From an uncultured Acidobacteriaceae bacterium (GTDB lineage: Bacteria; Acidobacteriota; Terriglobia; Bryobacterales; Bryobacteraceae): a stretch of 64,000 bases of DNA. Under the pieces are notes generated by a model. That model did no database searches. It was not told the DNA's origin and saw nothing but the letters and a program-made list of their open reading frames with translations. The stretch's first letter is position 1. Every line of letters starts with the position of its first letter. The stretch is taken from the NCBI GenBank assembly GCA_963808405.1, contig CAWEFG010000003.1:44564-108563 (forward strand), read 5' to 3'. The translations under genes and the position numbers were made by a program. This document shows, piece by piece, positions 29,668 through 56,100 of this stretch.

Positions 29668-29761
29668 TTTGCCCTCTACTAGTGGGATTTCAAGGGCCCA
29701 AAACAGTTTCATTGCAGGGTTGCAATGCCGAACTCCGCTACCCTGAAGCGGGACTCCGATT

Positions 29762-30568: not shown

Positions 30569-30640
30569 AACTCGAACGAAACGCATGTTTGTGTAGCACT
30601 TGCTTACCGTCGAGCGTCCATTGGGAAAGGATCATCGAAC

Positions 30641-30835: not shown

Positions 30836-30873
30836 TCTTGATCCACGCGCTTTCCGCTATACTGAAGCTCAGA

Positions 30874-31434
30874 ATGGATCAAAAAAAGCCTTCCTTTCAG
30901 CCCCTTGCTTTCACGCTAACTGTGGCGGCGGCCCTGTTGCGGCTTGTGCCGCATCCTCCAAATTTCGCTCCCGTAGGCAGTGTCGCTTTGTTCGGGGGCG
31001 CCAAGTTGCGTGGTTGGCAGGCCTACTGCGTACCCGTGCTCGCAATGTTGGTGACGGATCCGATTCGCAGCCGATTAGAAGGAAATTACGCTCCATACTC
31101 TTGGGCAACTCTGATCATTTACGCATCGTTTTTGATTAACGTCGCCCTGGGCCGGATCTTCCTCCGGCGTTCTTCGAGTGCCGTGAAGATCGCCTCTATC
31201 GCGGTCGCCGGCAGCGTTCAGTTCTACCTCATCACGAATTTCTTTGAGTGGCTAGCAGGCCTATCCCTCTACGCGCACACCGTCCCAGGATTGATTGCGT
31301 GCTATGTTGCCGCGCTGCCATTCTTCGGCCGAACCCTGCTTGGAGATTTGTTCTACACGGGCGTTTTGTTTACCGCGTACGCGCTTCTGAGGCGGCGAGT
31401 ACCTGCTGAGAATCGAACACTCTCGGCCGCGTAG
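30874..31434 (+). CDS. Integral membrane protein (DUF6580-like)
   Basis: From ATG 30874: MDQKKPSFQPLAFTLTVAAALLRLVPHPPNFAPVGSVALFGG..., with about 5 TM segments. Family name is from memory. Confidence 0.5.
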   Translation: MDQKKPSFQPLAFTLTVAAALLRLVPHPPNFAPVGSVALFGGAKLRGWQAYCVPVLAMLVTDPIRSRLEGNYAPYSWATLIIYASFLINVALGRIFLRRSSSAVKIASIAVAGSVQFYLITNFFEWLAGLSLYAHTVPGLIACYVAALPFFGRTLLGDLFYTGVLFTAYALLRRRVPAENRTLSAA

Positions 31435-31442
31435 CTATTCTC

Positions 31443-33392: not shown

Positions 33393-34572
33393 GATTCAAT
33401 TGCGAAGCGCGGCGCGCGGGCAGCAGACCGAAACCAACGCCCACCGTGAATGACACCGCAAACGCTACCAGCACGGAAACGGGGGAAATGGGCACGCGAA
33501 ACTGTTCGGTGAATAGCCGCACGCTCAACGGCAGCGCGAGACCGACAATGATCCCGATTACGCCTCCCGCCAGGCTGATCAGCACCGCCTCTACCAAAAA
33601 TTGCACCATCACTTCGCGGCGCGATGCACCGACTGCCATGCGCAAGCCAATCTCGCGGGTGCGCTCAGTGACGGTCACCAGCATGATGTTCATGATTCCG
33701 ATTCCGGAAATGATCAGCGCGATGGCGGAAACGACTACGAGCACAACGGTCAGTACATTGGCGATTTTGTCGGCTGTATCGAGGATCGCGCTTAGGTCCT
33801 GCACGTTGTATTTCGCTCCCGCGCGGTGACGCCTCTCGAGAATGTCGTTCACTTCCTGACGAACCGCCGGCACATCGGCTGCATTGCGCACCTCTACGTA
33901 GACCGGCTCGATGCGCTCGTACTGCATGAAGTACTTCATCACGGTAATCGGAATCAAGATGGTTTCATCCGTGATCTCGCCTTGACCGAACGTGCTGGTC
34001 TTCTCACGGAAAGTGCCGATCACCGTGAATTGCAGTTGACTGATCTTAATAGTCTGCCCTAACGATGCATCCTGGCTGCCAAAAATCCGGATAGCAAGCT
34101 TGTCGGTCAGCATGGCCACGCGCTCGCGCAATGTCAGATCGCTTTCATCGAACGCGCGGCCGCGCAGAACCAGCAGGTTCCGCACGCGCGCATAGTGCTC
34201 GTCCACTCCGTCGATGGTGACCTCGCGAACCTTGCCATTCACGACAATCTGATCGTTAGTAGTCATGACCGCCGATGCGGCAATAATTGTGCTGCCCAGT
34301 GTGTCGCGTATCGCTTGCACATCGGCGAGTTTCACGAAGTCGGCTTGCACTCGGGCGGTATTCTGCCCACCCGCTTCGTAATCCGCATAAACCAGATTCG
34401 ATCCGATGCCCCGAATCTGGTCAAGAATCAAGTCTTTGCTCGCGAGGGAAATAGTGACCACGAGAATAACGGACGCATTCCCGATAATTAAGCCGAGCGC
34501 GGTCAGGAATGTGCGCAGCCGGTTGGCCCGCAATGCTTGCAGACTGAAGTTGATCGCCTCGGCGAGATTCAT
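33367..34572 (-). CDS. MacB-type ABC transporter permease (MacB_PCD + FtsX domains)
   Basis: LRANRLRTFLTALGLIIGNASVILVVTI at the N-terminus, a periplasmic domain, then REIGLRMAVGASRREVMVQFLVEAVLISLAGGVIGI and a C-terminal PARRASQLNPTEALRYE. Confidence 0.85.
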   Translation of the reverse strand: MNLAEAINFSLQALRANRLRTFLTALGLIIGNASVILVVTISLASKDLILDQIRGIGSNLVYADYEAGGQNTARVQADFVKLADVQAIRDTLGSTIIAASAVMTTNDQIVVNGKVREVTIDGVDEHYARVRNLLVLRGRAFDESDLTLRERVAMLTDKLAIRIFGSQDASLGQTIKISQLQFTVIGTFREKTSTFGQGEITDETILIPITVMKYFMQYERIEPVYVEVRNAADVPAVRQEVNDILERRHRAGAKYNVQDLSAILDTADKIANVLTVVLVVVSAIALIISGIGIMNIMLVTVTERTREIGLRMAVGASRREVMVQFLVEAVLISLAGGVIGIIVGLALPLSVRLFTEQFRVPISPVSVLVAFAVSFTVGVGFGLLPARRASQLNPTEALRYE

Positions 34573-34592
34573 CTCATCTGCGGAATAGACGT

Positions 34593-35456
34593 CTAAGTGC
34601 CGCCGGCCTGCTTCAACAAACGGGCGGCGTCTTCTTTGGGCGGATCGTCGACCGTGATCGGCGCCTGCATGTATTTCTGAAGAAGAAGCTTCGCTTCGTC
34701 CAGGTTGCGCTTCTGTTTCACCAGGACATCCGCCCGCGCATACCAGATCTTAGGCGCGTTCGGCGCCACCTTCTGCGCTTCGAGGAACACCGCATCGCTT
34801 TCCCGCGTGCGCCCTTCGTCGGCCAACAACTTAGCCAGCGCGATCAGGTGACCGATCTCGCGAGGGGCAATGGCGATCGCTTTACGCAGATGTTGCTCGG
34901 CGGCGCCGAACTCGTTGCGTTTTTGCGCCAGTTGTGCCTTTAAGAAGAAGTCTTCGGCCGGATCGACGGCAGAAATCCGGTCCGCCACTCTCACCGCTTT
35001 GTCATAGCCGCCGCCCAGGAACCCCGGCGCTTCCAAGTAGTAGTCGAACAGATCGCTCAGCGCATCGCTGTTTGTCGGGTCGAGTTCTACCGATTTCTCA
35101 AACGCCTGCCGGGCCTTGGACGCAAGCGCGGGCGCCAGCAGCGGATTCGATGTCTCGGCCCGTTTCCCATATACGCGCCCCACCCAATCCATGTACTCGC
35201 CGTTCTTCGGCTGCAAGAGCGCCGCCTTCTGTAAGTAGTCACTGGCCTGCTTGAAATTCGCCAGCATGAAATAATCACGGCCTATCAGGAACTGGGTCCT
35301 CGAATCGGCGCTCTGCTTGTCCAGCAGCGCCAGAGATGCTCCGTAAGCTGTTCGCGTGTACAGCTCCTCCGCTTTGGTGAGAGTCTGGGCACGCGCGGGC
35401 CACGCGCATATCGCGAGTGCGGCTAAGGACACCAGTGAACCTATGCCACGAACCAT
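34593..35456 (-). CDS. Secreted TPR-repeat protein
   Basis: 287 aa with a signal peptide. Repeated 34-aa A/Y/L-rich helical repeats (e.g. AQLAQKRNEFGAAEQHLRKAIAIAP). Confidence 0.7.
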   Translation of the reverse strand: MVRGIGSLVSLAALAICAWPARAQTLTKAEELYTRTAYGASLALLDKQSADSRTQFLIGRDYFMLANFKQASDYLQKAALLQPKNGEYMDWVGRVYGKRAETSNPLLAPALASKARQAFEKSVELDPTNSDALSDLFDYYLEAPGFLGGGYDKAVRVADRISAVDPAEDFFLKAQLAQKRNEFGAAEQHLRKAIAIAPREIGHLIALAKLLADEGRTRESDAVFLEAQKVAPNAPKIWYARADVLVKQKRNLDEAKLLLQKYMQAPITVDDPPKEDAARLLKQAGGT

Positions 35457-35600
35457 TCCTTACATCCGATGCTGCCTAAGCGCTAGAGGTTGCCGGAACC
35501 TGGCATATCAACCAATATCTGTTGTATTCTGCTTCACTTAAACCCCAAAACGATATAGTATTCTTAGGCGGAAATTCGGAAAACAGGAGAGGAAAACATT

Positions 35601-36788
35601 ATGCTCGCCCCGTTGCGACGTGCGCTGTTTCTAAGCGGTTTCGTTGTCCTGATGGCCGGCACTACTTGGGCCCAGACTACTACTCTGGAAGGCGACGTAA
35701 AGGACCAGAATGGCCAGCCTTTGAAGGGTGCCGTCGTAAAACTGGACCGCACCGATATCAAAGGCCATTACCAGGTGAAGTCGGACAAGAAGGGCCACTG
35801 GCTCTACACGGGCCTGCCGTTCGGGAAGTACGACGTCTCCTGCGAAGTAGATGGCCAGGTAGTCGACAAGGTAAGCGGCGTGCAATCGAAGTATGGCGAT
35901 TCTACCGTCGTCAATTTCGATTTGAGCAAGCTGAAACAGCAGAAGGCGGCAGCGGCTCCGGCGAACGCAAACGGGGAACTGACTCCCGAGCAGGAGCGCG
36001 GGATGAGCAAGGAGCAGAAGGCGCAGTACGAGGCGCAGATGAAGCAACGCTCCGAGCAGATGAAGAAGAACAAGGCCCTCAACGACGCGTATAACGCGGG
36101 TAAAGACGCGCTTACCGCAGCGGGCGCGGAGCAGGACAAAGCAAAGAAGGCGGCCGATTTTCAGACCGCTGTCGACAACTTCCAAAAGGCCTCTGAGATG
36201 GACGCCACGCAGGAGGCTGTGTGGGCCGGGTTAGGGGATGCGTACTACGGCCTCGGCCAGGCGCAAACCGGTGACGATAAGACAAAATCGTTTGACGCAG
36301 CGCTTGCGGCATACAACAAGGTGTTAGGCATAAAGCCGGATGAAGCTCCCATCTATATCCAGATCGGCAATATCTATGGAGCCGAGAAAAAGATCCCCGA
36401 GGCGACCGAAGCGTTGACCAAGGCCGTTCAGCTGGATCCATCGTTGGGGAAAAAAGCATATTTCAACATGGGCGCGAACCTCGTCAATAGCGGCCAGCCT
36501 GACAAAGCAACGGAGTTCTTCAAAAAAGCGACGGATGCCGATCCCACCTACGCCGAGGCTTGGTATCAGTATGGAAGTTTGCTGATGATGAAGGGCGCGG
36601 TTGATCCGAAGACCGGCCAGCAGTCGTATCCACCGGATACGGCCCCCGCATTGCAGAAGTATCTTCAATTAGACCCGAATGGGGCGCACGCGCAAGAAGC
36701 GACGGCGATGTTGCAGGCCATGGGCGAAAAGGTGGAGACAAAGGTAAGCAATCCGAGCGCCACGAAGAAGAAGAGACCGCCGCAATAA
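35601..36788 (+). CDS. Secreted carboxypeptidase-regulatory-like domain / coiled-coil / TPR protein
   Basis: Good SD (aggagaggaaaacattATG). N-terminal LEGDVKDQNGQPLKGAVVKLDR...GKYDVSCEVDG (CarboxypepD_reg-like). C-terminal TPR repeats. Confidence 0.65.
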   Translation: MLAPLRRALFLSGFVVLMAGTTWAQTTTLEGDVKDQNGQPLKGAVVKLDRTDIKGHYQVKSDKKGHWLYTGLPFGKYDVSCEVDGQVVDKVSGVQSKYGDSTVVNFDLSKLKQQKAAAAPANANGELTPEQERGMSKEQKAQYEAQMKQRSEQMKKNKALNDAYNAGKDALTAAGAEQDKAKKAADFQTAVDNFQKASEMDATQEAVWAGLGDAYYGLGQAQTGDDKTKSFDAALAAYNKVLGIKPDEAPIYIQIGNIYGAEKKIPEATEALTKAVQLDPSLGKKAYFNMGANLVNSGQPDKATEFFKKATDADPTYAEAWYQYGSLLMMKGAVDPKTGQQSYPPDTAPALQKYLQLDPNGAHAQEATAMLQAMGEKVETKVSNPSATKKKRPPQ

Positions 36789-36842
36789 TGGCGGTCGCAA
36801 GGGCACATTCGAGATGCCCTGAACGCTCCTGAGAAGTTCCTG

Positions 36843-37151
36843 ATGTTTCGTGCTCTGATCGAGTTACTGTTTACAATTCTGATCGCGCTGTTGGCTCGCG
36901 CAGTATTCCGGAGTGTGCTCAGAGGTTTCGGGAACGCGGCCTCACAAGCCTTTCGAGATCGCGTTGCACAGGGTAGGCCAGGTTCGGCTCCGGGCGCGCC
37001 CCCCACTTCTCAGGGTGGTGAGCTTCATAAGGATCCGGTCTGCGGCACATATGTTGCCGAGTCGACACCGTTCCGCAGCCAGATAGCCGGTCAAAGCTTC
37101 TATTACTGCTCAGAGAATTGCCGCGAGAAGCACGCCCTGGTGGCTCGTTAG
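36843..37151 (+). CDS. Membrane-anchored YHS-domain protein
   Basis: N-terminal TM helix. C-terminal HKDPVCGTYVAESTPFRSQIAGQSFYYCSENCREKH (YHS/TRASH-like metal-binding module). Confidence 0.7.
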   Translation: MFRALIELLFTILIALLARAVFRSVLRGFGNAASQAFRDRVAQGRPGSAPGAPPTSQGGELHKDPVCGTYVAESTPFRSQIAGQSFYYCSENCREKHALVAR

Positions 37152-37154
37152 AAC

Positions 37155-38447
37155 ATGATTCGGCGGCGAGCGTTCTTATCTTCCGCAATCGGAGTGGGCG
37201 CTCTCGCTAATGTTGCCGGAGCTCAGCGGCGCGAAACGGACGCAGGACCGCCCGGTACTGTTCCGCCCGCGATCGCAGCTTTGAAGAACAGGCGAGCTGA
37301 AGCGACCCCCATCACCGTGGCCGAGCGCAAGGACCGCTTCGAACGCGCGCGCCAGCTCATGCAGCAGCACAAGATCGATGCCGTTTGCATGATCGGAGGC
37401 ACATCACTCGCTTATTTCACGGGCATTCGCTGGGGCAACAGCGAACGGCTGTTTGCATTGGTGGTACCGCAGAAAGGCAATCCCTTGTACGTCAGTCCGT
37501 CGTTTGAGGAGGACCGGGCCAAGGAACAGATTGCGCAAGCGCCAGATGGCGATTCCTCACGGGTTTTAACGTGGCAGGAAGATCAGAATCCGTACTCACT
37601 TGTGGCTCAGGGACTGAAAGACGCCGGCGTGAGGACAGGGCGCATCGGCATTGAGGAGCGCACCACATTTGTGTTTTCCGATGGCATTGCCAAGGCTAAT
37701 CCCGGAGCGGAAATCGTCAGCGCCACGCCGGTCACGGCGGGATGCCGAATGATCAAGAGCCCCGCCGAGATTGCATTAATGCGGCTGGCGGCGCAGGTTT
37801 CCCTCGCGGCCTACGAGGCGGCATGGAAGAGCTTGGAACCTGGCATGACGCAGAACCAATTCGGCGGATTGGTCACGGCGGCACACCGGCAACTCGGTTT
37901 CACCGGGGAAGCAAGCATACAGGCGGGAGAGTATTCGGCCTTGCCGCATGGATCGCGAACGCCACAGACGATTCGCGAGGGCACTGTCTTGCTTATGGAT
38001 GGCGGGTGCAGCGTGGAAGGCTATGCGTCCGATATCAGCCGCACATTCGTGCTGGGCAAAGCGACGGATAAAATGAAGCGCGTTTTCGCCATCGTGCACC
38101 AGGCGCAAACAGCGGCTGTGAAGACAGCGCGGCCGGGCCCGCCGGCAGGCGATGTGGATGCCGCAGCGCGAAAGGTGATTACCGACGCCGGTTACGGACC
38201 GGGGTACAAATACTTCAAGCACCGGGTGGGCCATGGAATGGGCATGGATGGACACGAGTGGCCCTATTTAGTGAAAGGCAACCCGCTTCCCCTCGAAGCG
38301 GAGATGACTTTCAGCGATGAGCCCGGCATTTACATACGCGGTGAGTTCGGCGTGCGGCTCGAAGACGACATGCACATCACCAATGCCGGCGCGGAATTGT
38401 TTACCCCGCAGAGTCCATCGCCCGAACAGCCGTTCGCGAGAGTCTAA
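37155..38447 (+). CDS. M24-family Xaa-Pro peptidase with twin-arginine signal peptide
   Basis: MIRRRAFLSSAIGVGALANVAGA (RRxFL). M24 core LLMDGGCSVEGYASDISRTF, HRVGHGMGMDGHEWPYL, SDEPGIY, GVRLEDDMHIT. Confidence 0.85.
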   Translation: MIRRRAFLSSAIGVGALANVAGAQRRETDAGPPGTVPPAIAALKNRRAEATPITVAERKDRFERARQLMQQHKIDAVCMIGGTSLAYFTGIRWGNSERLFALVVPQKGNPLYVSPSFEEDRAKEQIAQAPDGDSSRVLTWQEDQNPYSLVAQGLKDAGVRTGRIGIEERTTFVFSDGIAKANPGAEIVSATPVTAGCRMIKSPAEIALMRLAAQVSLAAYEAAWKSLEPGMTQNQFGGLVTAAHRQLGFTGEASIQAGEYSALPHGSRTPQTIREGTVLLMDGGCSVEGYASDISRTFVLGKATDKMKRVFAIVHQAQTAAVKTARPGPPAGDVDAAARKVITDAGYGPGYKYFKHRVGHGMGMDGHEWPYLVKGNPLPLEAEMTFSDEPGIYIRGEFGVRLEDDMHITNAGAELFTPQSPSPEQPFARV

Positions 38448-39082
38448 GCGCCGCGCGTTCGAGCGCGAATCTCGAGCAACGTCCGATGACCCAGGCCATC
38501 GGGCAGCTCGTAGCGGCAGAGCACGCCCACGGTGACAGGATGCTTCTTTGCCTCGGCCAAATCGCTTTCCACGTCTGGTCCCTTATAAAGAATGATGCGA
38601 GTACCCTCCCGAAGAGCCTTGCTGAATAGCTCCAGGATGCGCGTCATGGGCGCGACGGCTCGGGCTGCGATAATGTCCGGGTGCCGCCAGGCTGCGCGTT
38701 CTTCGGCACGCTGGGCGACGACATGCACGTTGGGCAATTCCAGAGACTCTACCGCGGAATCGACAAAGCGCGCCTTCTTCTGAGTCGATTCGGAAAGAGT
38801 GAAGCGGATTTCCGGCAGTGCGAGTGAAAGCGGAATGCCGGGGAAGCCCGCGCCCGTGCCTGCGTCCAGAACCCGCTTTACTCCGCAGAAGTGCCGCCAG
38901 GGAGCAACCGAATCGTAAACGTGTTTGATAGCCGCTTGCTGCGGACTGGTGATCCGCGTGAGATTCATGTACTCGTTGGTCGACACGATCAGACGCAAGT
39001 GTTGCGCCGCCTTCAAAATGAGCCGATCCCGATGAGGGATATCGGGCGGCAACACCCGCGCAAGCTCCTCTTCGAACTGCAC
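38444..39082 (-). CDS. rsmG: 16S rRNA (guanine527-N7)-methyltransferase RsmG
   Basis: 212 aa. NLTRITSPQQAAIKHVYDS and VLDAGTGAGFPGIPLSL (SAM-binding motif) are typical of GidB/RsmG. Confidence 0.85.
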   Translation of the reverse strand: MQFEEELARVLPPDIPHRDRLILKAAQHLRLIVSTNEYMNLTRITSPQQAAIKHVYDSVAPWRHFCGVKRVLDAGTGAGFPGIPLSLALPEIRFTLSESTQKKARFVDSAVESLELPNVHVVAQRAEERAAWRHPDIIAARAVAPMTRILELFSKALREGTRIILYKGPDVESDLAEAKKHPVTVGVLCRYELPDGLGHRTLLEIRARTRGA

Positions 39083-39117
39083 ATCCGAATGATCGCATTC
39101 GGCGACACTAGGGGTGA

Positions 39118-40221
39118 ATGTTAAGAGCTGGAATTATAGGGCTTCCCAACGTGGGGAAGAGCACCCTGTTCAACGCCGTCACGCAGACGCGCAAGGCCAT
39201 GGCGGCGAATTACCGGTTTTGCACTATCGAGCCCAACACAGGCGTGGTCACAGTGCCGGACGATCGATTAGACGTACTTGCAAAGATCAGCTCATCACAG
39301 AAGATCGTGCCGGCCGTGTTTGAGTTTGTCGATATCGCAGGACTGGTGAAGGGCGCGAGCAAGGGTGAAGGGCTGGGCAACCAGTTTCTTGGCCATATAC
39401 GCGAAGTGGACGCGATTATCCAGGTGGTCCGCTGTTTTGAGAATTCGAATATCGAGCACGTTATGGATACAATCGACCCGGTTCGCGATATCGAAATCGT
39501 GAACACGGAGCTCGTGCTCGCAGATTTGGAGGCGGTGGAGAAGAGGAAAGCGAAACAACAGAAGACGGCAAAAAGCGGCGACAAGAAGGCGCTTGCGGAA
39601 GTGGATCTCCTCGAAAAACTCGAGAAGCACCTGAACACGGGGAAAACGGCTGTAACGCTCGGGCTGACGCCGGAGGAAAAAACGGCGCTGAAAGGGTTCT
39701 TTCTACTGACCGCGAAGCCGACATTGTTCGCGTGCAATGTGGCCGAAGAAGATCTTGGCACGGCGGACAGTAACGAGTTCGTCCGCAGAGTGCGCTCGTA
39801 TGTAGCCGAACATCACGATACCAGCGCGGTGGTGGTGTCCGCCGAGATTGAATCGGAACTCGCCAGCTTGTCGCCGCAAGACCGCGCTGAATATCTGCAG
39901 AGCCTCGGAGTGGCCGATACGGGCGTGGGCAACTTAATTCAGGAGGCGTACCGGCTGCTTGGATTGCGCACCTTCCTGACCACCGGCGAGAAAGAAAGCC
40001 GCGCCTGGACCATTCATGCGGGCGACAAAGCGCCGCAAGCCGCGGGCGTGATTCACTCGGATTTTGAAAAGAGCTTCATCTCTGCGGAGTGCGTCTCTTA
40101 CGAAGACCTGGTAGAGCTCGGCTCATTCGCGCGAGCGCGCGAGCTTGGAAAACTGCGCACAGAAGGTAAGGAATATATAGTGCAGGACGGCGACGTCATC
40201 GAGTTCAAGACCTTCCTTTAG
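39118..40221 (+). CDS. ychF: Redox-regulated ribosome-binding ATPase YchF
   Basis: GIIGLPNVGKSTLFNA, FVDIAGLVKGASKGEGLGNQFL, C-terminal TGS-like domain ...YIVQDGDVIEFKTFL. 367 aa. Confidence 0.92.
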   Translation: MLRAGIIGLPNVGKSTLFNAVTQTRKAMAANYRFCTIEPNTGVVTVPDDRLDVLAKISSSQKIVPAVFEFVDIAGLVKGASKGEGLGNQFLGHIREVDAIIQVVRCFENSNIEHVMDTIDPVRDIEIVNTELVLADLEAVEKRKAKQQKTAKSGDKKALAEVDLLEKLEKHLNTGKTAVTLGLTPEEKTALKGFFLLTAKPTLFACNVAEEDLGTADSNEFVRRVRSYVAEHHDTSAVVVSAEIESELASLSPQDRAEYLQSLGVADTGVGNLIQEAYRLLGLRTFLTTGEKESRAWTIHAGDKAPQAAGVIHSDFEKSFISAECVSYEDLVELGSFARARELGKLRTEGKEYIVQDGDVIEFKTFL

Positions 40222-40234
40222 GACCTGGCGCGGC

Positions 40235-42433
40235 CTACTTTTGCTGATCGAAGAGCTCGGACCGGGACACGCGCTCGCCGCGAAACATCACCAGTGAAAT
40301 TCGTTCTGTGTTCGAGATATCCTGCAGCGGGTCTCCGTCGAGCAGAACCATCGTAGCGTCGCGACCGGGCTGAATGGAGCCGATGCGGTCCTCCGCCCGC
40401 AGCACCTTCGCAGCGTTGTATGTCGCAGCTTGCAGCGCAACCGCTGAAGGGATGCCGGCCTTCACCCAAAGCTCCAGCTCGTGCTGAACGGTCGGTCCGT
40501 GAATGACCAGCAAGTTTCCGGCATCGCTGCCGGTAATCAACAGCACTCCCGCTTTATAGGCATTCATGAGATTTTGATTCAGCCGCTCGAGGAAACCCTT
40601 GAAATGCTCGGGAGGCTCGGGCTTCTGCTTTAAAAGCATGTCGCGAGTTGAGTTCAGAAGATCGGTCGGACCGACTTGCAGTACGAGAGAGCGGTTTAGC
40701 GGCTCCGGGTTCGACGTCCTCAAATCGACCAAAGCTTCGAAGACGCTCAGTGTAGGATCGTACGCGATCCCCTTCGTCCTCATTTCCACAAAAGTTGCGG
40801 GCGGAATAAGATCGATCATCGAGCCGTGTTCGACGCTGCTGGTACCGGCATCGGCTGCATCTTTCACATCAGCGGCATTGCCGGTATGGGTTGCTGACGG
40901 GATATTGTCCTTGATCGCCTCGGAAATAACGGCGTCATAGATTCCGGTATCGAGCCTGTTGAACAGGCCCCACTCCGAGTTCCCGGCTTCAAGAACGGCC
41001 TTTATGCAGTCGACTCCCGCCTTTTTGAGATCGTCTACTTGCTTGCGCGCTTCATCCGCGGATTTCGGCAAGCGTACGAACTGCTGCCGCGCAGTGTTTT
41101 TTTGCGTGTCGGGAATGTACTTCAGCAATTCCATTGGATGGCCGCCTTCCGCTGTAAAAAGAGGACCGCACGCAAAGAATTGAGCGTCCAGATATTGGCC
41201 GGAATTGACTAGTCTGCGGAGTTTAAGCGAAGCGTCCAGCCAGTCTCCGGTGCTTCTTACGGCCGTGACGCCGCTGTAGAGATAAGCAGCAAGCCTGCGC
41301 CTCTCAGCGTTCGGATCGGCATACTTGGAGACGTCGCTATACAGGCCGCCCGGCGCGCCGATGTGGACATGCATATCGATCATGCCCGGCATTAGAGTTT
41401 TGCCGGCAGCCTCTATCACGTCGGCGTCGAAAGACTTGGTGTCGCTTGGAGGCGTCTGAAATACCCGGGCGATTTTCCCGTTTCTCACGAGCACTGCGCC
41501 GCTGCGGATGATGGTGCCATTACCGACGAAGATGGTCGGGTTCTGAAACAGAACAGAGCGGTTGCGCTGGGCATTGCGAAACAAAATTTTGGCTTTCTCG
41601 ATGTTTTGTTTCGTCCGGGCCTGGTAGATGCCCATCACGAGGAACGGGGCGAGCACAGCCAGAATCCAGAGCTTCGATGCGCCGCTGATCTTTTCTTCCT
41701 TTTCCCAGCGGAAGAGCTTGATGCCGACGAATAAGGCGACGGCCAACGTGATCAACAGCGCTACAACCGAGAGAAGATTCGCCCAGACGCCTTCGCCGCC
41801 GATCATGATCGACTGCATGCCCTGATACAGATAAGTGGCGGGCATGAACTGCGCGATGACTTGAACCCAGATGGGCATGATGCTGACGGGGAATGTCGCG
41901 CCGCTGAGAAACAGCATCGGCAGATATAAGAGCTGGGTCAAAAATCCGCGCTTCCTGCGCGGAATTCACGACTGCCGCGATGATCATGCCCATCGAGCGA
42001 AACGCGACCACACCGATGCCCACGAACACAAAGACTGAGAAATGTTCTGCGGCACCGGCATGTGATAAAATGAGCCTGGCGAAAAACAAGAAGAGAAACA
42101 CGGACGGGAGAAAAGCCACCAGGCCCGACACTCAGCGATGCAACGATAATGGGCGCGGCATCACGGGGGCGACTTTGAACCGCCGCAAGACATTGGTTTC
42201 GCGATCCTGCACCGCGCGCATGCCCGCCCCGAAGAAACCGTTCCCCAGGACGCCGATGATCAGCACCATCGAGATCACCTGCGCCATCGCGGCCGGACTT
42301 TCCTTGGCATCGAACAATTGCGCAAACAGGAAGAAAAAAACCAGCGGGAAAAGATAGCTGAAGAATAGGATGGAGCGGTCACGCCCCATCAAGCCGCAGA
42401 TTGCTTCTGCATCTGAGCGATATAGGGTCTCAT
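40235..42433 (-). pseudogene. ABC-2-type permease fused via an extra TM helix to an amidohydrolase domain; N-terminal ~165 codons disrupted by several frameshifts
   Basis: ORF 40235..41941 is continuous. It contains the permease C-terminal TMs (LYLPMLFLSGATFP...FMPATYLYQGMQ...IKLFRWEKEEK), an additional TM (LWILAVLAPFLVMGIY), and an amidohydrolase (MPGMIDMHVHIG ... ITGSDAGN ... DRIGSIQPGRDATMVLLDGDP). Earlier permease parts lie in two other frames (ORFs 41520..42131 and 42132..42392). A likely ATG at 42433 overlaps the ATPase stop (TAATG). Confidence 0.65.
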
Positions 42434-43364
42434 TATTCGCGCAGCTTCTTTCCAGTCAGTTCGATAAATACATCTTCGAGTGTCGGACGCTTCATATGGA
42501 TGTCGACCAGCCGCAGATTCTGTTGATCGATCCATTTGACAAGTTCAACTATAAGCGCCGCTGCCGAGTCGGTCTGCACGGAAAGCGTGCGGCCGTCGTC
42601 GCGAGTAACGTATTTCTCTTTTCGCAAGCCCATCGGGAATCTGGTCAAGCGGCATGGGTTCGTTCGTCGTTACCTCGACAAGCGTATGGCCTAAGACGCG
42701 CTGCTGAATTTCCCGCGGCGTACCGAGCTCGATGATCTTGCCCGCATCGATGATCGCCACGCGGTCGCAAAGCCGTTCGGCTTCCTCGATGTAATGCGTG
42801 GTGATGAGAATCGAGCGGCGATTTTCTTTCAACTCTTGAATGACGCCGTGAATCTCGTGCCGCACCTGCGGGTCGAGCCCCGTGGTCGGCTCGTCCAGAA
42901 ACAACAGCGTGGGCTCATTCAGTAGCGCCAGCGCTAACGCGACACGCTGCTTCTGGCCGCCCGAAAGCGATTTATAAAAGGCATCTTTCTTGTCCCAAAG
43001 TTGAAGGCGCTTCAGCAACGCCATCGCGATCGGTGTGCTGGTCGTAGAAAGCATCGAAGAGCTCGAGCGCCTCATGGACTTTCATTTTGTCCGGGAGGTT
43101 AGTGGCTTGCAGGCACACGCCTATACGGTTCTTGATCTCTTTGCGGCTGGAGGGCCGGGTCGAATCCGAGCACAGAGACTTCCCCGCTTGTCCGCGGGCG
43201 CAGTCCTTCCAGAATTTCGATGGTGGTAGTCTTCCCTGCGCCGTTCGGTCCGAGCAGTCCGAAGACTTCGCCCCTGCCGACTTCGAGATCGATTCCGCTG
43301 ACAGCCTCAAAATCGCCATAGGATTTGTGCAGGTCTGCACGGAGATTGCAAGCGAGTCGTTCAT
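42433..43364 (-). pseudogene. ABC transporter ATP-binding protein, disrupted by at least 4 frameshifts
   Basis: Start is MNDSLAISV (ATG 43364). Walker A GLLGPNGAGKTTTIEIL is readable only in a frame not listed as an ORF (about 43222-43260). LSGGQKQRVALALALLNEPTLLFLDEPTTGLD lies in ORF 42545..43075. C-terminal RPTLEDVFIELTGKKLRE lies in ORF 42433..42648. Confidence 0.8.
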
Positions 43365-43476
43365 CTGATGGCTGAGTTCTAGTACAGTATGCACGATCGT
43401 TACCCGACGAAGCACGGACAAAGTTCGCCGCGGATCAGGTCTATACGGTAGACGTCTCGCCGCATGATGCGAAGGC

Positions 43477-44669
<1,193 letters not shown>

Positions 44670-44709
44670 TCCGATATGAAAATTCGTCGCGAGAAGATCA
44701 TCAATACGG

Positions 44710-46470
44710 CTAAAGGACCCTCATCGCGATCAGGGTTTGATCGTCGGTCAGAGGCGTCGGGCCGCGGAACACGTCGATATCTTCAAAGATCGGCGTTCAC
44801 GATCTGGCTGCGGAGTCTGCTGCAGCTGCGATTTCATAAGCTGTTTCAGACGCTCCGCTCCATACTCCTTCAATTTCGCTTCTGCCAGTTGATCCTCTAC
44901 GCCGTCGGAGTACAGCAGGACAAGATCGTCCGGTTGAGCCACAAGCTGGACTTGGTCGTACTCCTGATCATCGAGCAGGCCGATGGGAACTCCTTCCGCT
45001 CGGATTCGATAATCTCTCCATTGCGGCAAATCATCGGCGGCAGAGTGCCGGCGCTCGCGACCGTGAATGTCCGCAGTTCGGGAGTCCCACAACACCAGGG
45101 AGAGCGTGGCATACTGCGCGTCCACTCTGCGCTCGAGCAACGCTTCGTTCAGCACTTCATCAGTTGCGCGGGGTGCGGCGGCTGGAGCGCGAGAATGCGC
45201 AGCAATCCGGAAATCAGCGCGCCGTAGAGAGCCGCGGCCGCGCCTTTTCCGCTCACATCGCCAAACGCGATGAGAGTGTATTCGTCGTTGTGCTCGAAAA
45301 AGTCGTATAGGTCGCCGCTGATCTCGCGAGCGGGCTGGCTCTGATGCCGATATCGAGCCCGATAACGTCCGAGACGTGCTGCGGCAGCAGAACGGACTGC
45401 AGTTTGTAAGCGGCCTTCAGATCCTGCTCCATCCGCTGTTCGCGCTGCGCCAGTTCTTCATACAAGCGCGCATTCTCGACCGACGTGGCGATCTGCGGAG
45501 CAAGCAAGCTAAGTGCTCGCGCATGATCTTCGGTGAAGAAGCTGGCGCGGACGCTCTCCAGATCCATGACTCCAATAACGCGGTCGCTGCAGGATCAGCG
45601 GAACGGCGACTTCCGAACGGATATCGGGGTGCGACGCGATATACCGCGGATCCTGCGTCACGTCGGCCACGCGGATCACCTGGCGGACTTGCGGCTGCAC
45701 CGCCGGTCAGCCCTTGCCGAACTCGATGTTGTCGACCGTGACCATTTCTGGTCGTAGCGCTGGCTGAAGCGGCACCGCAGCAAGCTTGCGATCCTCGTCG
45801 ACGAGAAAAATGCTAGAACGCATCGAAGTTGATGAGGGCGCGAATCGTGACCGCAATTTTAGTCAGCAGTTCGTCGATGTCGAGAATGGAGCTGAACTCC
45901 TGTGAGAGATGCGTGAGAACTCTCAGCGTGCGATTCTGGCGTTCGACGCGGCGATACAGGCGGGCATTGTCGATCGCGACGCCCACGCGGCTGGCGATCA
46001 GAGAAGTAGAGCGCGATCCTGCTCAGAAAATGCGTTCAGGCGCGTGGACTGCAGATCGATAACGCCGACCAGCTTGCCGCGCATGATCATCGGGACGGCG
46101 AGTTCCGCGCGCACCGCGTCGAGCGCGTTCAAATAGCGCGGGTCGGTCCGCACGTCGCGAACCAGATCGGCTGGCGGGATGGCGGCGGCGGAACCGGTGA
46201 TGCCTTCATTCGAGCCGAATGGAAAGATTCTTCGCTACCTCGTCGCGGTGGCCGATGGAGTAGCGCATGCTGCAGAGCGCGCGTGCGTTCGTTATAAAGC
46301 AGGATCGCGAAGAGCTCGTACGGGATGACGTCCTTGACGATTTCGGCTACATTCGCAAGCAGGCGATCGAGATCGAGCGTTTCCGGAGTGACCGAACTGA
46401 CCTCAAGCAGAAAATCGAGAAGCTCGGCGCGTTCCTGGAAGCGCACCTGGGCTTTACGAGGAGCAGGCAT
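44710..46470 (-). pseudogene. GAF-GAF-PP2C(SpoIIE)-type phosphatase, disrupted by numerous frameshifts
   Basis: Fragments in different frames. GAF1: LDRLLANVAEIVKDVIPYELFAILLYNERTRAL / RYSIGHRDEVAKNLSIRL / VRDVRTDPRYLNALDAVRAELAVPMIMRGKLVGVIDLQS. GAF2: VRQVIRVADVTQDPRYIASHPDIRSEVAVPLILQ / MDLESVRASFFTEDHARALSLLAPQIATSVENARLYEEL. SpoIIE: KLQSVLLPQ, LVLLYSDGVEDQ, C-terminal IFEDIDVFRGPTPLTDDQTLIAMRVL. Confidence 0.75.
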
Positions 46471-46480
46471 TCGTTAATAG

Positions 46481-47356
46481 CTAGTCGAGATGGCCGCCGG
46501 GAACGTTTGCTCCGCTGAGGCGAAGCGGCGCATCGAGTACATCTAGCACTGGAAGCTCGCGCAGAATGCTCACGCCCGAGCTGGTGCCGATGCGATTTGC
46601 GCCGGCGCCTACCATTTGACGAAGCGCTTCGAGCGTGCGCACCCCACCCGATGCTTTGACCCCAATAGACTCGCCCACTGCCTCGCGCATAAGGCGCACG
46701 TCTTCAACAGTCGCGCCGCCCGATGAAAAGCCGGTCGATGTCTTAACGAAGTCGGCGTTAGTTTCCCGCGCCAGACGGCAAGCGGCGAGCTTCTCCTCAC
46801 GATTGAGCAGACAGGTTTCAAAAATCACTTTCAAGATCGCGCCGCGAGCATGCGCTGCTTCGGCGACCTGTGCGATCTCTGTTCCGACTAACTGGAAATT
46901 TTGGGAGCGCAACGCCCCGATGTTCTGGACCATGTCGATCTCGTGCGCGCCTTCATTTAATGCAAGCTCGGCCTCGGCGAACTTAATGCGCATCTGGTTG
47001 GCGCCGAGCGGAAAGCCGATGACCGTGCAGACACGCACGGGAGAACCGCCCAGCGCCGCGGCCGCGAGCGGAACCCAGCAGGGATTCACGCAGACGGAAG
47101 CAAAGCCGAACCGACGAGCTTCTTCACAGACGCGTATGATATCCGCCTGCGTCGCCTCCGGCTTTAATAGCGTGTGATCGATGAGTGAGGCTATGGCTGC
47201 CGGATTGTCCAGATTGTCGTTCAGGTTCACAGTTTTTCGCGGATGCCGAGGCGAGATTTGGGCGCGTGTAGCACCCATTTGCGTCAAGGATAACATGCGC
47301 GTCCTGCAAGGCACGCCGCTATCTAAGTAGGCGACGAATGTGCACGGCGCCTGCAT
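46481..47356 (-). CDS. deoC: Deoxyribose-phosphate aldolase
   Basis: [32 protein letters not shown] (Schiff-base Lys), [10 protein letters not shown]. The true start is more likely an internal ATG (47296 or 47278), because DeoC is usually about 220-260 aa. Confidence 0.85.
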
Positions 47357-47504
47357 AAATCAGCAGGTACGCAACCGTGAACGGCGCGATCAGGAGCTCG
47401 CCAGTCAACCGAGCCAGCTTCATCGGCTTCGGAATGCGAATACGGCTCGCGAGCATCGCCCGTGCCATGCGGCGCGCGCTATTGACCCCGTCAGCGTCAG
47501 CCAT
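47319..47504 (-). CDS. Candidate 61-aa single-TM small protein, translationally coupled to the DinB gene
   Basis: ATG 47504 overlaps the DinB stop (ATGGCTGA). Hydrophobic helix [18 protein letters not shown]. Ends before the internal deoC start candidates. No homology recognised. Confidence 0.3.
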
Positions 47505-50042: not shown

Positions 50043-53000
50043 CTAGGCTGGACCAGCGGCTTCCGCCGGCGCTTCCGGCAATCGACCCCCGCGTAAACCT
50101 TCCACCCACAGGCGCATGCGATCCATATACAGATAAATCACCGGAGTGGTGTACAACGTCAGCGCTTGACTCACGATCAGCCCGCCCACGATCGTGATTC
50201 CGAGCGGGCGCCTTAGCTCGGATCCCGTGCCCGTTCCGAGCGCCAGCGGCAATCCTCCTAACATCGCGGCCATGGTGGTCATCATGATGGGCCGAAAACG
50301 AAGCAGGCACGCTTCGAAGACCGCATCCCTCGGACTCTTGTGATCGCGCCGCTCCACATCCAGCGCGAAATCGATCATCATGATCGCGTTCTTCTTCACA
50401 ATTCCAATCAGAAGGATGATCCCTATCAGCGCAATCACGCTCAGATCGGTGTGGGTGATCAGAAGCGCGAGAATCGCTCCTACTCCGGCCGAGGGCAGTG
50501 TCGACAAAATCGTGATCGGGTGAATATAACTCTCATAGAGGATTCCCAACACGATGTAAACGGCAGCGAGCGCCGCCGCAATTAGCACCGGCTCATTGGC
50601 GAGCGAGGATTGAAACGCTTGCGCCGTTCCGCTGAAACTTCCGGTGATCGAGGTGGGCATTCCCGCTTTCATCTCCATCGCATTGATTTCGGTCACGGCG
50701 GTCCCTAATGCCACGCCGGGCCCGAGATTAAAGGAGATAGTGACCGAAGGGAAAATGCCGGAATGGTTTACCGCCAGCGCTGCCGTCGATCGCTGAAAAT
50801 GCGTGAACGTCGCAAGTGGAATGCCTGGTCCGTCCGTTGTCGACGTTGTTGTGACATAGATCTCCTTCAAACCATCGGGGTTTTGCCAGAATACCGGATC
50901 CACCTCCATGACCACGAAATACTGATTCATCGCGGTATAGGTCTTGGCGATCTCGCGCTCTCCAAACGCATCGTAGAGAACGTTGTCGATCGCCTGCGGA
51001 GTAATGCCCATCCTCGATGCCGTGGGACGGTCGATAACCAGATTCGCTTCGAGCCCATTGTTCTGCTGATCGCTGTTGACGTCCGTCAAGTCCGGCATCT
51101 TCTTCATCAAATTCATCAGCAATGGCGCCCAATGCGTCAGCTCTTCCAGATTGTCGCTTTGAAGCGTGTATTGATACTGAGCGGGACTCTGACGTCCCCC
51201 AATGCGTAAATCTTGAGATGCCTGAAGCACCAAATTCACACCCGGAACAACCGCCAATTTCGGACGCAAGCGATTGATGATTTGGTCGGCTGTCACCTTG
51301 CGCTCGTTCAACGGCTTGAGTGCCATGAATGCGCGCCCTGTATTGGTGGTGGTGCCGCCGCCTCCCCCCGTAAACGCCTGCACGGTCGCTACCCCGGGAT
51401 CCGCTTGTACGATCTTGGCTAATTCGAAGATCTTCTTTTGCATCGCTTGGAACGATGTGCTTTGATCGCCGATAAAATTCCCGTTCATGCGGCCGGTGTC
51501 TTGCTGGGGGAAAAAGCCTTTCGGGATGATCACGTATAGATACACATTCAAAGCCAATGTCGCGATCGCGATCAGCAAAACCAACGCCGAATTCCTCAAA
51601 ACCCAGGCCAGGCTGTGCTCATAGACTTTAAGGATGAATTGAAATACCCGCTCGCTCGCTTGATACAGTCTTCCCCGTCCTTTCTCGTCGCTGAGCAAGC
51701 GCGAGCACATCATGGGCGTTGTCGTCAGAGAAATGGCCAGGGAAACAAGAATGGTGACCGACAACGTAATTGCAAATTCGCGAAATAGCCGTCCGATAAT
51801 TCCTCCCATCATCAAAATCGGGATGAACACGGCAACCAGCGAAATACTGATAGACAGAACCGTGGAACCGATCTCCGAAGCCCCTGTGAACGCCGCTTCC
51901 ATGGCTCCCATGCCCTGTTCGCGGTATCGGGTGATGTTCTCGAGGACTACAATGGCGTCGTCAACCACGAACCCGGTAGAGATAGTAAGGGCCATCAGCG
52001 ACAAATTGTCGATGCTGAAGCCCAACAGATACATGACCCCGCACGTACCGATCAGCGAGACGGGAACCGCAACGCTGGGAATCAAGGTAGCCCGCACGAT
52101 CGCGCAGGAAAACGAATACGACCAAAACGACCAGCGAAACCGAGATCAGAAGCGTTCGCTCCACATCTTTAACGGAGGCGCGGATGGTTACGGTCTGGTC
52201 CAAGGTGATGGTCATCTCCACAGCGCGGTTGATCGACGCCTGCAATTGCGGCATCGCGGACTTGATGCCGTCGACGGTATCGATAATATTCGCCCCCGGC
52301 TGGCGAAAGATAATCAGCAAGGCGGATCGCTTTCCGTTCGCCAAACCCAACGACCGCAGAGTTTGCACTGAATCCGTCACGCGCGCGACGTCCGATAGCC
52401 GCACGGCCGCGCCGCTGCGATAGCTGACAATCACAGGGGCGTAATCGGCTGCGTGCATCAGTTGATCGTTCCCATTGATCATCCAGGTTCTCTTTGCGTC
52501 GGAGAAAACTCCTTTCGCCAAATTCGCGGTTTGGGCGGCTACCCCGGTACGAATATTGTCGAGAGTTAACCCATAGCTGTTGATCTGCGTAGGGTTGACG
52601 TCGATGCGTACGGCTGGCGCTGAACTGCCTCCGACGGTAACCTGTCCAACGCCGCGAATTTGCGAGATCCTCTGCATCAAAATTGTCGATGCCGTGTCAT
52701 AAAGCGCGCTGGTGGGCAGCTTGTTCGATGTCAAAGCGACGATCATGATCGGCGAATCCGCCGGATTCACTTTTCGATAAGTGGGATTGCTGGGAAGATC
52801 GGCGGGAAGGTATCCTCGCGCTGCATTGATGGCGGCTTCCACGTCGCGCGCCGCCGCGTCAATGTTGCGGCTTAAATCGAATTGAAGCGTGATACTGGTT
52901 TGTCCCAGCGTGCTGGTCGAGGTCATTTCGGTGACGCCGGCAATTCGTCCGAACTGACGCTCCAGCGGAGTGGCGACGGAAGACGCCATAATTTCCGGGC

Positions 53001-53163
53001 TGGCGCCGGGCAGTCCCGTGGATACCGAAACGGTGGGAAAGTCAACCTGCGGAAGCGGAGACACGGGAAGAAGTCGAAACGCAACGGCGCCCCCGAGGGC
53101 AATCGCCGCCGTCAACAAGGTTGTGGCGATGGGCCGCTTGATAAATGGAGACGAGAGGCTCAC
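50043..53163 (-). pseudogene. RND efflux permease (MdtC-like second pump subunit) interrupted by a single +1 frameshift
   Basis: ORFs 51961..53163 (N-terminal 1/3) and 50043..52097 (C-terminal 2/3) join at FVFLRDRA|ATLIPSVAVP. Removing one G of the GGG run (plus-strand ccc 52091-52093) restores alignment to the paralog [18 protein letters not shown]. Total length 3121 nt = 1040 codons + 1. Confidence 0.85.
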
Positions 53164-53166: not shown

Positions 53167-56100
53167 TTAATCTCCACTCGCGGGCGCCGGCTGCATACCC
53201 GCCGCCGGGCCCCGTCCTCGTTTGCGAAGCTCCGCGACTTTCGAAGCAAGCGTGTCGAAGAAGAGATAAATGACCGGCGTTGTGTATAAGGTCAGCAGCT
53301 GGCTGAAGATCAATCCGCCGATAATCGTTATTCCGAGCGGCCGCCGGAGCTCCGATCCGACACCTCGTCCAAAGGCCAGCGGCACCGCGCCCAGCAGGGC
53401 CGCCATCGTAGTCATCAAGATGGGGCGGAAACGAAGCAGCGCCGCTTGAAAAATCGCCTCGCGCGCAGGCTTGTGTTCGCTGCGCTCCGAATCGAGAGCG
53501 AAATCGATCATCATAATGGCGTTCTTCTGTACGATTCCTATCAGCAGAACGATGCCGATGATGGCGACGACGGTCAGCTCCGACCGGCATATCAGCAGCG
53601 CAAGAATCGCGCCGACTCCGGCCGAAGGAAGCGTCGAAAGTATGGTGATCGGATGGATATAACTTTCATACAGCACGCCGAGGACAATGTAGACCGTCAC
53701 CAGCGCCGCTAAAATCAACAGAGATTCATTCGTCAACGATGCGATGAACGCTTGCGCCGTGCCTTGAAACGACGTCTGCATGGCCGCGGGCGGCGGCAGC
53801 TGTTTCTCCACATTGCGTATGGCATTGACTGCTTCTCCAAGAGCCGCTCTCGGCGTGAGATTAAAAGACACAGTCGTCGCCGGAAACTGGCCGACGTGGC
53901 TGATCAGGATGGGCATCGAAGAACTCGACGTCTGAGTGAAAGCGCTCAGCGGAACCGGCGCGCCGTTGCTCGATTTTATGTAAATGTTCTGCAGATTCCG
54001 GGGATGCGTCTGGAATTGCGGCTGTACTTCCAAAATGACGTGATACTGGTTCAACTGCGTGAAAAGAGTGGAGACCTGCCGCTGGCCAAACGAATCGTAG
54101 AGCGTCGCATCGATGTTCTGCGCAGTGATGCCGACGCGCATGGCCGTTTCGCGGTCAATCGCCAGCGATGTCGCCAATCCGTGCGTCTGCAGATCGCTAG
54201 CAACGTCGGCCAGTTGAGGAAGCGCTTTCAGCTTGTCGACAAACTGCGCGGTATAACTCGCGAGCTCATTCGGATCGGGATCTTCAAGGCTGTATTGATA
54301 TTCCGTCCTGCTCACGATGTCTTCCACAGACAGGTCTTGCACCGGCTGCATGTAAAGCACCATGCCGTCCACTTTCGCGAGTTCCGGTTCCAGGCGCCGG
54401 ATCACGTCCGAGGCATTGACATGGTTGCGCTGTGCCAAGCCCTTTAAGTTGATCTGGATGCGGCCGCTGTTCAAAGTTGTATTCGTGCCGTCGACCCCGA
54501 TGAACGACGAGAGGCTGTCGACTGCGGGATCCTTCAAAATGACCCCCGCGATGCGCTGCTGCAGGCGGGACATTTCGGGAAACGAGATACTCTGGTCCGC
54601 TTCCGAAACACCCTGGATTTCGCCGGTATCCTGCACCGGGAAAAACCCTTTGGGAATGACGATATAGAGCAAAATGGTCAGAGCCAAGGTGCCCGCGGCG
54701 ATCGCCAGGGTCAGGTTTCGATGCTCGAGCACCCATTCCAGGGTCCTGCCGTAAAACGCAATGATCCGCTCAAATACTTTTTCCGAGGCCTTATAAAACC
54801 TGTTTTGCTGCGCTTCGGGCTTGTGCCGCAAGAGTTTCGCGCAAAGCATCGGCGTAAGCGTCAGCGAGACGGCCGCGGACACGATGATAGTGACAGCCAG
54901 CGTAACCGCGAATTCGCGGAACAGACGGCCAGTGATGTCGCCCATGAACAGCAGCGGAATCAATACCGCGATCAGCGAGACCGTCAACGACATGATGGTG
55001 AATCCAATCTGCTCGGCGCCCTTCAGCGCTGCCTCCAAAGCCGGCTCGCCTTGCTCCACGTAACGCATGATGTTCTCGATCATGACGATGGCGTCATCGA
55101 CCACGAACCCTGTCGAAATCGTCAAAGCCATCAGCGTCAGATTGTTCAAGCTGTATCCCAGCAGATACATCACTGCGAACGTGCCGACCAGCGATAACGG
55201 CACCGCAACGCTTGGGATGAAAGTGGCCGCAAGATTTCGCAGGAACACAAAGATGACCATCACGACCAGCACGATGCACAACAGCAGCTCGAATTCCACA
55301 TCGGAAACAGAAGAGCGAACCGTTATCGTTCTGTCGGTCAACACCTGGACGCCGATAGACGACGGGATGGTCGCCTGCAGCTTTGGCAGCAGCGCTTTCA
55401 CCCGATCCACGACTTGGATAATATTTGCGCCGGGCTGCCTCTGCACGTTCACGATCACCGCTGGAGTTTGATTCATCCAGGCGGCTTGCCGTATGTTCTC
55501 GATTCCGTCGATCACTTTCGCGACGTCCTTCAGCATGACCGGCGCGCCGTTCTTGTAAGCTACGATCACTTGCGCGTAATCGCTTGCGCTTAGAAGCTGA
55601 TCGTTCGCGCCGATTTGATACGCCTGGTGAGCGCCATCGAAGCTGCCCTTCGCCTGGTCAAGACTTGTAGCGGTCAGCGCTGTGTGTACGTCTTCGAGAT
55701 TCAAGCCATAAGAAGCGAGCTGGGTGGGGTTGGCCTGAATCCGAACTGCCGGCTTTTGTCCGCCGCTGATCGTCACCGCTCCTACGCCGGCGAGCTGCGA
55801 GATCTTTTGCGCCAAACGAGTGTCCGCGTAATCCTCTACCTGCTGCAATGCCATCGAGCTCGAGGTCAACGCGAGCGTCAGGATAGGCGCGTCCGCGGGA
55901 TTGGTTTTGCTGTAGATGGGAGGCAGCGGCAGGTCGGCAGGCAGAAAGGTCTGCGCGGCGTTGATGGCTGCCTGAACCTCTTGCTCCGCAACGTCTATGT
56001 TCAAGCTCAGGACGAACTGCAACGTGATAACCGATGCGCCCTGCGAGCTGGTCGATAGCATCTGGTTCAATCCCGGCACTTCGCCAAGCTGCCGTTCCAA

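Follow-up and report, generated by a model that had tools for sequence, protein, structure and literature searches.

The window analyzed here is a stretch of 64,000 nucleotides from an uncultured Acidobacteriaceae bacterium. Four genes lie on its minus strand between positions 40235 and 46470. They encode an ABC-2 permease fused to an amidohydrolase domain (about 732 amino acids, 40235..42436), an ABC transporter ATPase (about 310 amino acids, 42433..43364), the diaminopimelate decarboxylase LysA (lysA, 43400..44669) and a GAF-GAF-SpoIIE protein, a PP2C-type phosphatase (44710..46470). The original prediction had described dense frame-breaking indels on this strand between about 41945 and 46270, and its gene identities, fragments and coordinates proved right. 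Frameshift-aware protein-to-DNA alignment against the ORFs of up to about 50 related loci made the case stronger than described, showing about 40 (38-42) frameshifting indels of 1-2 nt and one nonsense codon from 41949 to 46269, a stretch referred to below as the patch. The earlier count of more than 20 lesions was too low. About 30 of the lesions in these 4.3 kb are extra bases, compared to about nine missing ones, and nearly all are 1 nt in length.

All four genes are affected. The N-terminal part of the permease (about 165 codons, 41942-42436, minus strand) contains seven lesions, at 41949, 42041, 42070, 42133, 42163, 42393 and 42408, each backed by 46-49 of 47-50 relatives. The rest of the gene, 568 codons, is one uninterrupted ORF (40235..41941, minus strand). 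Four lesions were found in the ATPase gene (42631 +1, 43016 +1, 43143 +1 and 43336 -1), backed by 38-45 of 43-49 relatives. The Walker A motif had been reported to be out of frame with the ORF 42972..43421, which is explained by the compensated pair at 43336 and 43143. The lysA gene carries about 13 frameshifts (43484, 43789, 43827, 43900, 43988, 44040, 44053, 44096, 44136, 44158, 44267, 44340 and 44542), and all 4-6 relatives spanning these sites support them. An apparent +1 at 44661 may result only from the choice of start codon (ATG at 44669). In addition, lysA contains an in-frame TAG on the minus strand (43601..43603); the sister genome reads TCG (Ser) at this position, and no other nonsense substitution was found in the patch. 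Between 44791 and 46269, the GAF-GAF-SpoIIE gene has 14-17 lesions, which were called against the ORFs of the relative L001 and against the intact orthologue of L022. Its first approximately 67 codons (46270-46470) are without lesions.

The lesions are spread roughly evenly over the patch with a mean spacing of about 105 nt (chi-square about 7 on 7 degrees of freedom for eight 540-nt bins). Its borders are sharp on both sides and lie within the permease gene and the GAF-GAF-SpoIIE gene, and the patch therefore ignores gene structure. From 41966 to 46483, the minus (coding) strand has no stop-free frame of at least 230 codons. Long ORFs cover only 0.20 of the patch, the lowest value of any 4.3-kb stretch in the window, compared to 0.82 elsewhere, and even this fraction stems from an antisense ORF. 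Neither edge shows an N run, a repeat or any other visible sign of a join.

The flanks had been described as clean. This was confirmed for the 14.5 kb checked against orthologues (28687-41948 and 46270-47496), which contain no majority-supported frameshift; outside 28.7-47.5 kb, cleanliness of the window was judged by ORF continuity alone. For about 40 lesions distributed evenly across the 18.8 kb checked, the chance of finding all of them in one 4.3-kb stretch would be about 0.23^39, roughly 1e-25. The isolated lesion reported at 52091-52093 is real: a single extra base in GCGGGC near 52092 splits an RND pump gene, and it is of the homopolymer type. A Ku-like ORF is located nearby, at 28684-29796.

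Beneath the lesions the coding signal is undisturbed. After frame correction, all four proteins yield full-length Pfam matches. These comprise ABC2_membrane and Amidohydro_1 for the permease, ABC_tran (profile positions 2-137 of 137) for the ATPase, and the SpoIIE profile (positions 2-191 of 192) together with two GAF stretches for the phosphatase. Corrected LysA covers Orn_Arg_deC_N (positions 3-247 of 247) and Orn_DAP_Arg_deC (2-95 of 95), that is, both the PLP-binding barrel and the C-terminal sheet domain in full length. Its top matches in a protein search are diaminopimelate decarboxylases (E = 1e-223); it is 87% identical to LysA of the sister genome, with the next matches at 77% or below, so that best-hit orthology agrees with the assignment. 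So does synteny, since the gene order around lysA is the same in L001.

Selective constraint was compared between the patch and its flanks. The patch has a nonsynonymous-to-synonymous ratio of 0.34 and the flanks have one of 0.37; second codon positions differ at 5.6% and 5.2% of sites, respectively. Amino-acid changes specific to the window are as frequent as those specific to the sister genome in the patch (22 versus 22 at 908 sites); in the flanks the numbers are 99 and 70 (3,530 sites). The fraction of mismatches reaches 17.1% inside the patch, with 15.5% and 17.4% for the flanks. At third positions, the divergence from L001 is a little greater inside the patch than outside (0.394 versus 0.339). 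This excess is limited to lysA and the GAF-GAF-SpoIIE gene (0.39-0.43, with most flank genes at 0.31-0.37), stays within the range of flank genes and was attributed to ordinary gene-to-gene variation; a faster evolution of this region was not seen in other locus pairs. The permease gene crosses the patch edge, and its two halves are equally diverged at third positions (0.354 and 0.350).

The lesions had been taken for 1-nt changes in short homopolymers, which does not hold for most sites: no run is lengthened by 21 of the 27 single-base insertions, and 8 of the 12 deletions lie outside homopolymers. Fourteen of the 27 single-base insertions create a GC dinucleotide (p = 2.6e-5 versus random insertion), a bias for which we found no match in the literature on error signatures of sequencing platforms. 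Insertions do not prefer a codon phase; 82% lie at codon boundaries versus 78% under the null model, which is not significant. Spontaneous indels in bacteria mostly arise in homopolymers and repeats, as expected for slippage, and lean towards deletion. The spectrum of the patch is the opposite of this pattern, and it is in keeping with the noise of raw reads.

In about 50 relatives, the same genes are present as uninterrupted ORFs. In the scan of genome contigs, L001 is the best of the matches listed, with about 83% nucleotide identity, and none of these matches is nearer to the window, whether within the patch or in its flanks. A foreign or recombinant origin of the patch was considered and dropped, since its composition is unchanged, flanking repeats are absent and L001 is nearest throughout among the matches listed. 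The locus pair L137/L145 shows many gaps upstream; gene content differs there, and the pair was set aside as not comparable. An exact-protein look-up of the flanking YchF gave no copy on record, and the best match in a scan of metagenome contigs for the same species reached only 77% protein identity. Thus, no same-species assembly was found among the listed genome contigs, metagenome contigs and protein collections, and the matches from all collections are too distant to call individual bases. The nearest relatives are Nanopore-only MAGs assembled with Flye and Medaka (PMC12313526), and the closest of these carries scattered frameshifts of its own. Together with the isolated homopolymer-type frameshift near 52092, this points to a likely long-read background of the record.

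Taken together, these sequence comparisons make it highly probable that the 4.3-kb patch is a poorly polished assembly artefact and not a real loss of genes. Of the two readings offered originally, a low-quality consensus patch is thus backed by the tests, and recent indel mutagenesis is disfavoured. The four genes are most likely intact in the organism, and 41949-46269 would be a low-accuracy consensus with an indel error of about 1%, chiefly spurious single-base insertions, and with a few substitution errors at most. Most likely, a single long read from single-molecule sequencing, or very few of them, backs the patch. Coverage may have dipped here, the segment may vary between strains, or a bridge or gap fill made from long reads may have been left unpolished, and the remainder of the contig would be well polished. 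The lesions, their clustering and spectrum and the undisturbed coding signal are shown by the sequence comparisons, and from them we infer both this technical origin and the type of read. Constraint beneath the lesions is normal, and they are spread uniformly between sharp edges, blind to genes and codons. Such an insertion-rich, non-slippage profile, which lacks surplus substitutions and disregards gene boundaries, fits a stretch whose quality is close to that of raw single-molecule reads. The lesion density also agrees with the read error of about 1% given for R10.4.1 (PMC12007338). Residual errors of polished long-read assemblies are mainly homopolymer-associated according to the same report (PMC12007338); the mostly non-homopolymer lesions of the patch depart from this profile, which counts against an artefact.

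The patch shares features with two known kinds of assembly fault. Long-read (Nanopore) assembly errors likewise consist of one-base indels that split conserved genes into frame-hopping fragments with signs of decay being absent, and the density of about 1% in the patch matches the read error given for present Nanopore chemistry. However, the errors are confined here to one sharply bounded 4.3-kb stretch instead of being scattered, and they are mostly non-homopolymer insertions in contrast to the residuals left after polishing. In hybrid or scaffolded assemblies, bridges or gap fills made from unpolished long reads leave kilobase-scale segments of read-level accuracy within accurate sequence, with edges unrelated to genes. 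The patch resembles them in its scale, its embedding and its gene-independent edges, but differs in that its edges show no join.

In a variant of this reading, the artefact would stem from two co-assembled strains collapsed into one consensus, or from a rare strain that contributed a chimeric stretch, and sites at which the strains differ would have come out as extra or missing bases. Microdiversity is said to hamper MAG recovery in the soil metagenomes of the relatives (PMC12313526), and the slightly higher third-position divergence of the patch would suit this variant. Moreover, at 16 of 28 +1 sites two alternative single-base removals lead to the same protein, as if both synonymous alleles had been kept. 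The idea that both alleles were kept was dropped, since simulated random insertions give this pattern in 44% of cases versus 57% observed, a difference that is not significant. Codon-phase preference is absent, the permease gene diverges equally inside and outside the patch, and by a rough clock a switch between strains of one species should leave the distance to other species unchanged. We therefore regard this variant as unlikely.

A second alternative is that the lesions are real and very recent, the result of a localized burst of indel mutagenesis, for example by error-prone synthesis across a repaired 4.3-kb tract, which would have inactivated lysA, the ABC transporter and the GAF-GAF-SpoIIE gene before substitutions could accumulate. 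The lesions are present in the sequence as given, and the missing excess of substitutions would also suit an extremely recent event. The bias towards GC-creating insertions indicates a non-random process that could in principle be enzymatic, and the Ku-like ORF lies nearby. Nevertheless, no bacterial process known to us introduces indels at 1% across 4 kb and leaves substitutions out, and the location of 21 of 27 insertions outside runs, together with a 3:1 ratio of extra to missing bases, is unlike spontaneous bacterial indels. Forty independent hits in one tract with edges within genes would require a single catastrophic event, which must also have become fixed in the population despite the loss of lysine synthesis. 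Such a burst is very unlikely. Slimmer still is the prospect that the lesions reflect an unknown, tightly localized and insertion-biased process, adding C after G or G before C in one 4.3-kb tract of the chromosome of this soil acidobacterium, with either a knockout of the four genes or read-through by recoding.

Long neutral decay of the four genes into old pseudogenes is refuted, as the original prediction had already argued. Several adjacent genes carrying frameshifts and a stop codon are also typical of pseudogene decay in reductive bacterial genomes, but the many frameshifts and the one stop codon are all that speaks for it here. Normal constraint and the lack of excess amino-acid changes rule it out, and the full-length Pfam matches likewise contradict it. 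Neutral decay brings several substitutions per indel; forty indels should thus be accompanied by hundreds of substitutions, of which none are detectable. Large deletions are absent, the patch halts mid-gene in two genes, and the indels are insertion-rich and 1-2 nt long, without the slippage character, deletion bias or range of sizes expected of decay. Programmed recoding or RNA editing, by which bases would be corrected in transcription or translation as in some organelles, would share with organelle frameshift decoding and insertional editing the dense frame breaks in perfectly conserved coding sequence, and the GC-creating context is non-random, but its likelihood is negligible: a comparison of local contexts showed no common slippery or signal motif, the lesions are mixed (+1, +2, -1 and a stop codon), the patch spans parts of four unrelated genes and is not a gene unit, about 50 relatives encode these genes free of lesions, and to our knowledge no such system exists in bacteria.

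The proposal that the organism has lost lysA, made on the condition that the lesions are real, is consequently unlikely, because constraint, edges, even spread and spectrum all back an artefact. With a sister genome and outgroups, indel density can be set against lineage-specific substitutions and against constraint at the codon positions, a practical test that requires no reads. If the lesions were real, they would indicate an unknown localized mutational process, for which the evidence leaves little room. Recognizing a local quality failure averts misannotation and marks the stretch for re-polishing. Taken at face value, the record would lead to four genes being annotated as pseudogenes and to the organism being counted as auxotrophic for lysine, with neither an ABC exporter nor a signalling phosphatase, which would mislead metabolic reconstruction and pseudogene counts.

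The minus strand lacks a long open frame between 41,966 and 46,483, while the remaining window is tiled with long ORFs. Stop-free frames of at least 230 codons cover 0.20 of the patch, the stretch from 41,949 to 46,269 in which minus-strand genes carry dense indels of 1-2 nt, compared with 0.82 elsewhere in the window; the 0.20 stems from an antisense ORF, and this coverage is the minimum among all 4.3-kb stretches of the window. The host is an acidobacterium, the GC content of the window is ~57-58%, and its relatives are labelled as Acidobacteriaceae, Bryobacteraceae or Terriglobia MAGs. Another stretch, 26224-28750, has no confident long ORF and a lower GC content (53-58%); same-strand ORFs at 27741-28451 and 28255-28746 overlap there in different frames, and a Ku-like ORF (28684-29796) comes next.

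The closest relative among the matches listed is locus L001 (contig CAWFWH010000009.1, a Microflora Danica MAG), which is collinear with the window from 47,297 to 30,309 at ~83% nucleotide identity. None of the matches listed was an assembly of the same species. Its lysA (414 aa), ABC ATPase (322 aa) and ABC-2 permease-amidohydrolase fusion (732 aa) are intact, and most of the GAF-SpoIIE gene is present. Nucleotide alignment with L001 showed ~44 indels of 1-2 nt from 46,269 to 41,949 and about a dozen in the flanks, the latter being intergenic or frameshifts of L001 itself. Flank coding indels were ascribed to L001 because the ORFs of the window and of other relatives are intact at those points. 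The frameshifts of L001 are scattered (for example at L001 ~5426, 5979, 16187, 18827 and 20881), some lie outside homopolymers, and they hit deoC, the GAF gene and several flank genes, all intact there in the window and other relatives. The nearest relatives found, L001 included, are Nanopore-only Flye+Medaka MAGs (PMC12313526).

To locate the lesions, that is, frameshifting extra or missing bases relative to orthologues, 317 ORFs from 49 related loci were compared with the window using a purpose-written frameshift-aware protein-to-DNA aligner. On the minus strand, the permease N-terminus is hit at 41949, 42041, 42070, 42133, 42163, 42393 and 42408 (supported by 46-49 of 47-50 relatives) and the ABC ATPase gene at 42631, 43016, 43143 and 43336 (38-45 of 43-49 relatives). 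lysA, also on the minus strand, contains ~13 sites, each supported by all 4-6 relatives spanning it, and an in-frame TAG where L001 has TCG; an apparent +1 at 44,661 may be a mere start-codon difference. The minus-strand GAF-SpoIIE gene has 14-17 sites according to L001 ORFs and an intact orthologue at a second related locus, L022; a candidate at 46,040 was rejected, since this error belongs to L001. Altogether, the patch holds 38-42 frameshifts, ~30 with extra bases and 9 with missing bases. Across the full orthologue-checkable range of the flanks (28,687-41,948 and 46,270-47,496), no majority-supported frameshift was found; outside 28.7-47.5 kb, cleanliness was judged from ORF continuity alone. 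Both patch edges are intragenic: in the permease-amidohydrolase gene the remaining 568 codons are clean, and in the GAF gene the first 67. The cluster with clean flanks put forward in the original prediction is even more pronounced than claimed, and the frameshift-aware alignment proposed with it revealed no comparable indel density in the checked neighbouring genes.

The lysA reading frame does not stop at 43477, the ORF end given in the original prediction, but runs on in a third frame and terminates with 'DLIRGELCPCFVG' at a TAA further on (43400-43402). Compared with L001, the region encoding this C-terminus (43418-43500) contains a real in-frame insertion of ~12 nt plus a frameshift. The permease gene encodes an ABC-2 permease and a C-terminal Amidohydro_1 domain in a single ~732-aa protein (window 40235-42436, L001 9509-11707 and many other loci). 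This fusion gave >400 matching stretches in the genome scan and likewise >400 in the metagenome scan, and its gene adjoins the ABC ATPase gene in close relatives.

The lesions had been described as gains or losses in short homopolymers, which is wrong for most of them: the affected base is unlike both neighbours in 21/27 single-base insertions and 8/12 deletions. Insertions outside runs make up 78%, compared with 60% when insertions placed at random were run through this aligner (p = 0.04), and homopolymer-extending insertions are under-represented. A 5'-GC-3' dinucleotide is created by 14/27 single-base insertions versus 16.5% at random (p = 2.6e-5), several of them being CAG^C or G^CTG. Retention of both alleles of a synonymous difference and a preference of insertions for codon boundaries were suggested by eye; both failed against simulation. 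Lesion placement thus ignores coding structure but is not fully random with regard to sequence context.

After frame correction, all four proteins gave full-length Pfam matches (SpoIIE and two GAF stretches; both decarboxylase domains; ABC_tran; ABC2_membrane and Amidohydro_1), and a protein search matched corrected LysA to diaminopimelate decarboxylases with E = 1e-223. Relative rates were tested taking L001 as the sister and as many as 29 outgroups; amino-acid changes numbered 22 window-specific versus 22 L001-specific in the patch (908 sites) and 99 versus 70 in the flanks (3,530 sites). Codon by codon against L001, patch and flanks have nonsynonymous/synonymous ratios of 0.34 and 0.37 and second-position differences of 5.6% and 5.2%, respectively. 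Third-position difference is somewhat raised in lysA and the GAF gene; in the permease gene it is 0.354 for the half inside and 0.350 for the half outside the patch. Judged from these comparisons, the coding sequence beneath the lesions is not decaying. No repeats flanking the patch were found. Since L001 stays the nearest relative among the matches listed across patch and flanks, the patch is not foreign DNA.

The single lesion noticed outside the patch, at 52091-52093, was confirmed as one extra base in GCGGGC (~52092). It splits an MdtC/AcrB-type RND efflux pump gene (50043-53163) into ORFs of 400 and 684 aa; an intact paralogue with 54% identity lies directly upstream (53167-56298). The split gene may be a genuine pseudogene, or the extra base may be a sequencing error of the homopolymer type.

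We infer that the patch is very probably low-quality consensus, one of the two readings in the original prediction and well supported here. It would be a stretch of roughly read-level accuracy embedded in a clean contig. At ~1%, its lesion density is the same as the error given for present-day Nanopore reads (PMC12007338), and the isolated homopolymer-type frameshift at 52,092 suggests a long-read-based assembly. Were the lesions instead real and the product of a very recent mutational burst, some forty independent events, mostly insertion-type and non-slippage, would have had to strike one tract that cuts through two genes, and no substitutions would have come with them. We know of no process that produces such a localized burst. 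Neutral decay leaves several substitutions for each indel, favours deletions and produces indels of varied size; the patch shows none of these hallmarks, and old pseudogenes are therefore excluded, as the original prediction had argued, with constraint normal and Pfam matches full-length. Programmed recoding is excluded because no motif is common to the sites, several lesion types occur together and the genes are uninterrupted in ~50 relatives. With low-quality consensus the favoured reading, the patch would be a technical artefact that reflects assembly quality rather than biology, and it is unlikely that the organism has lost lysA.
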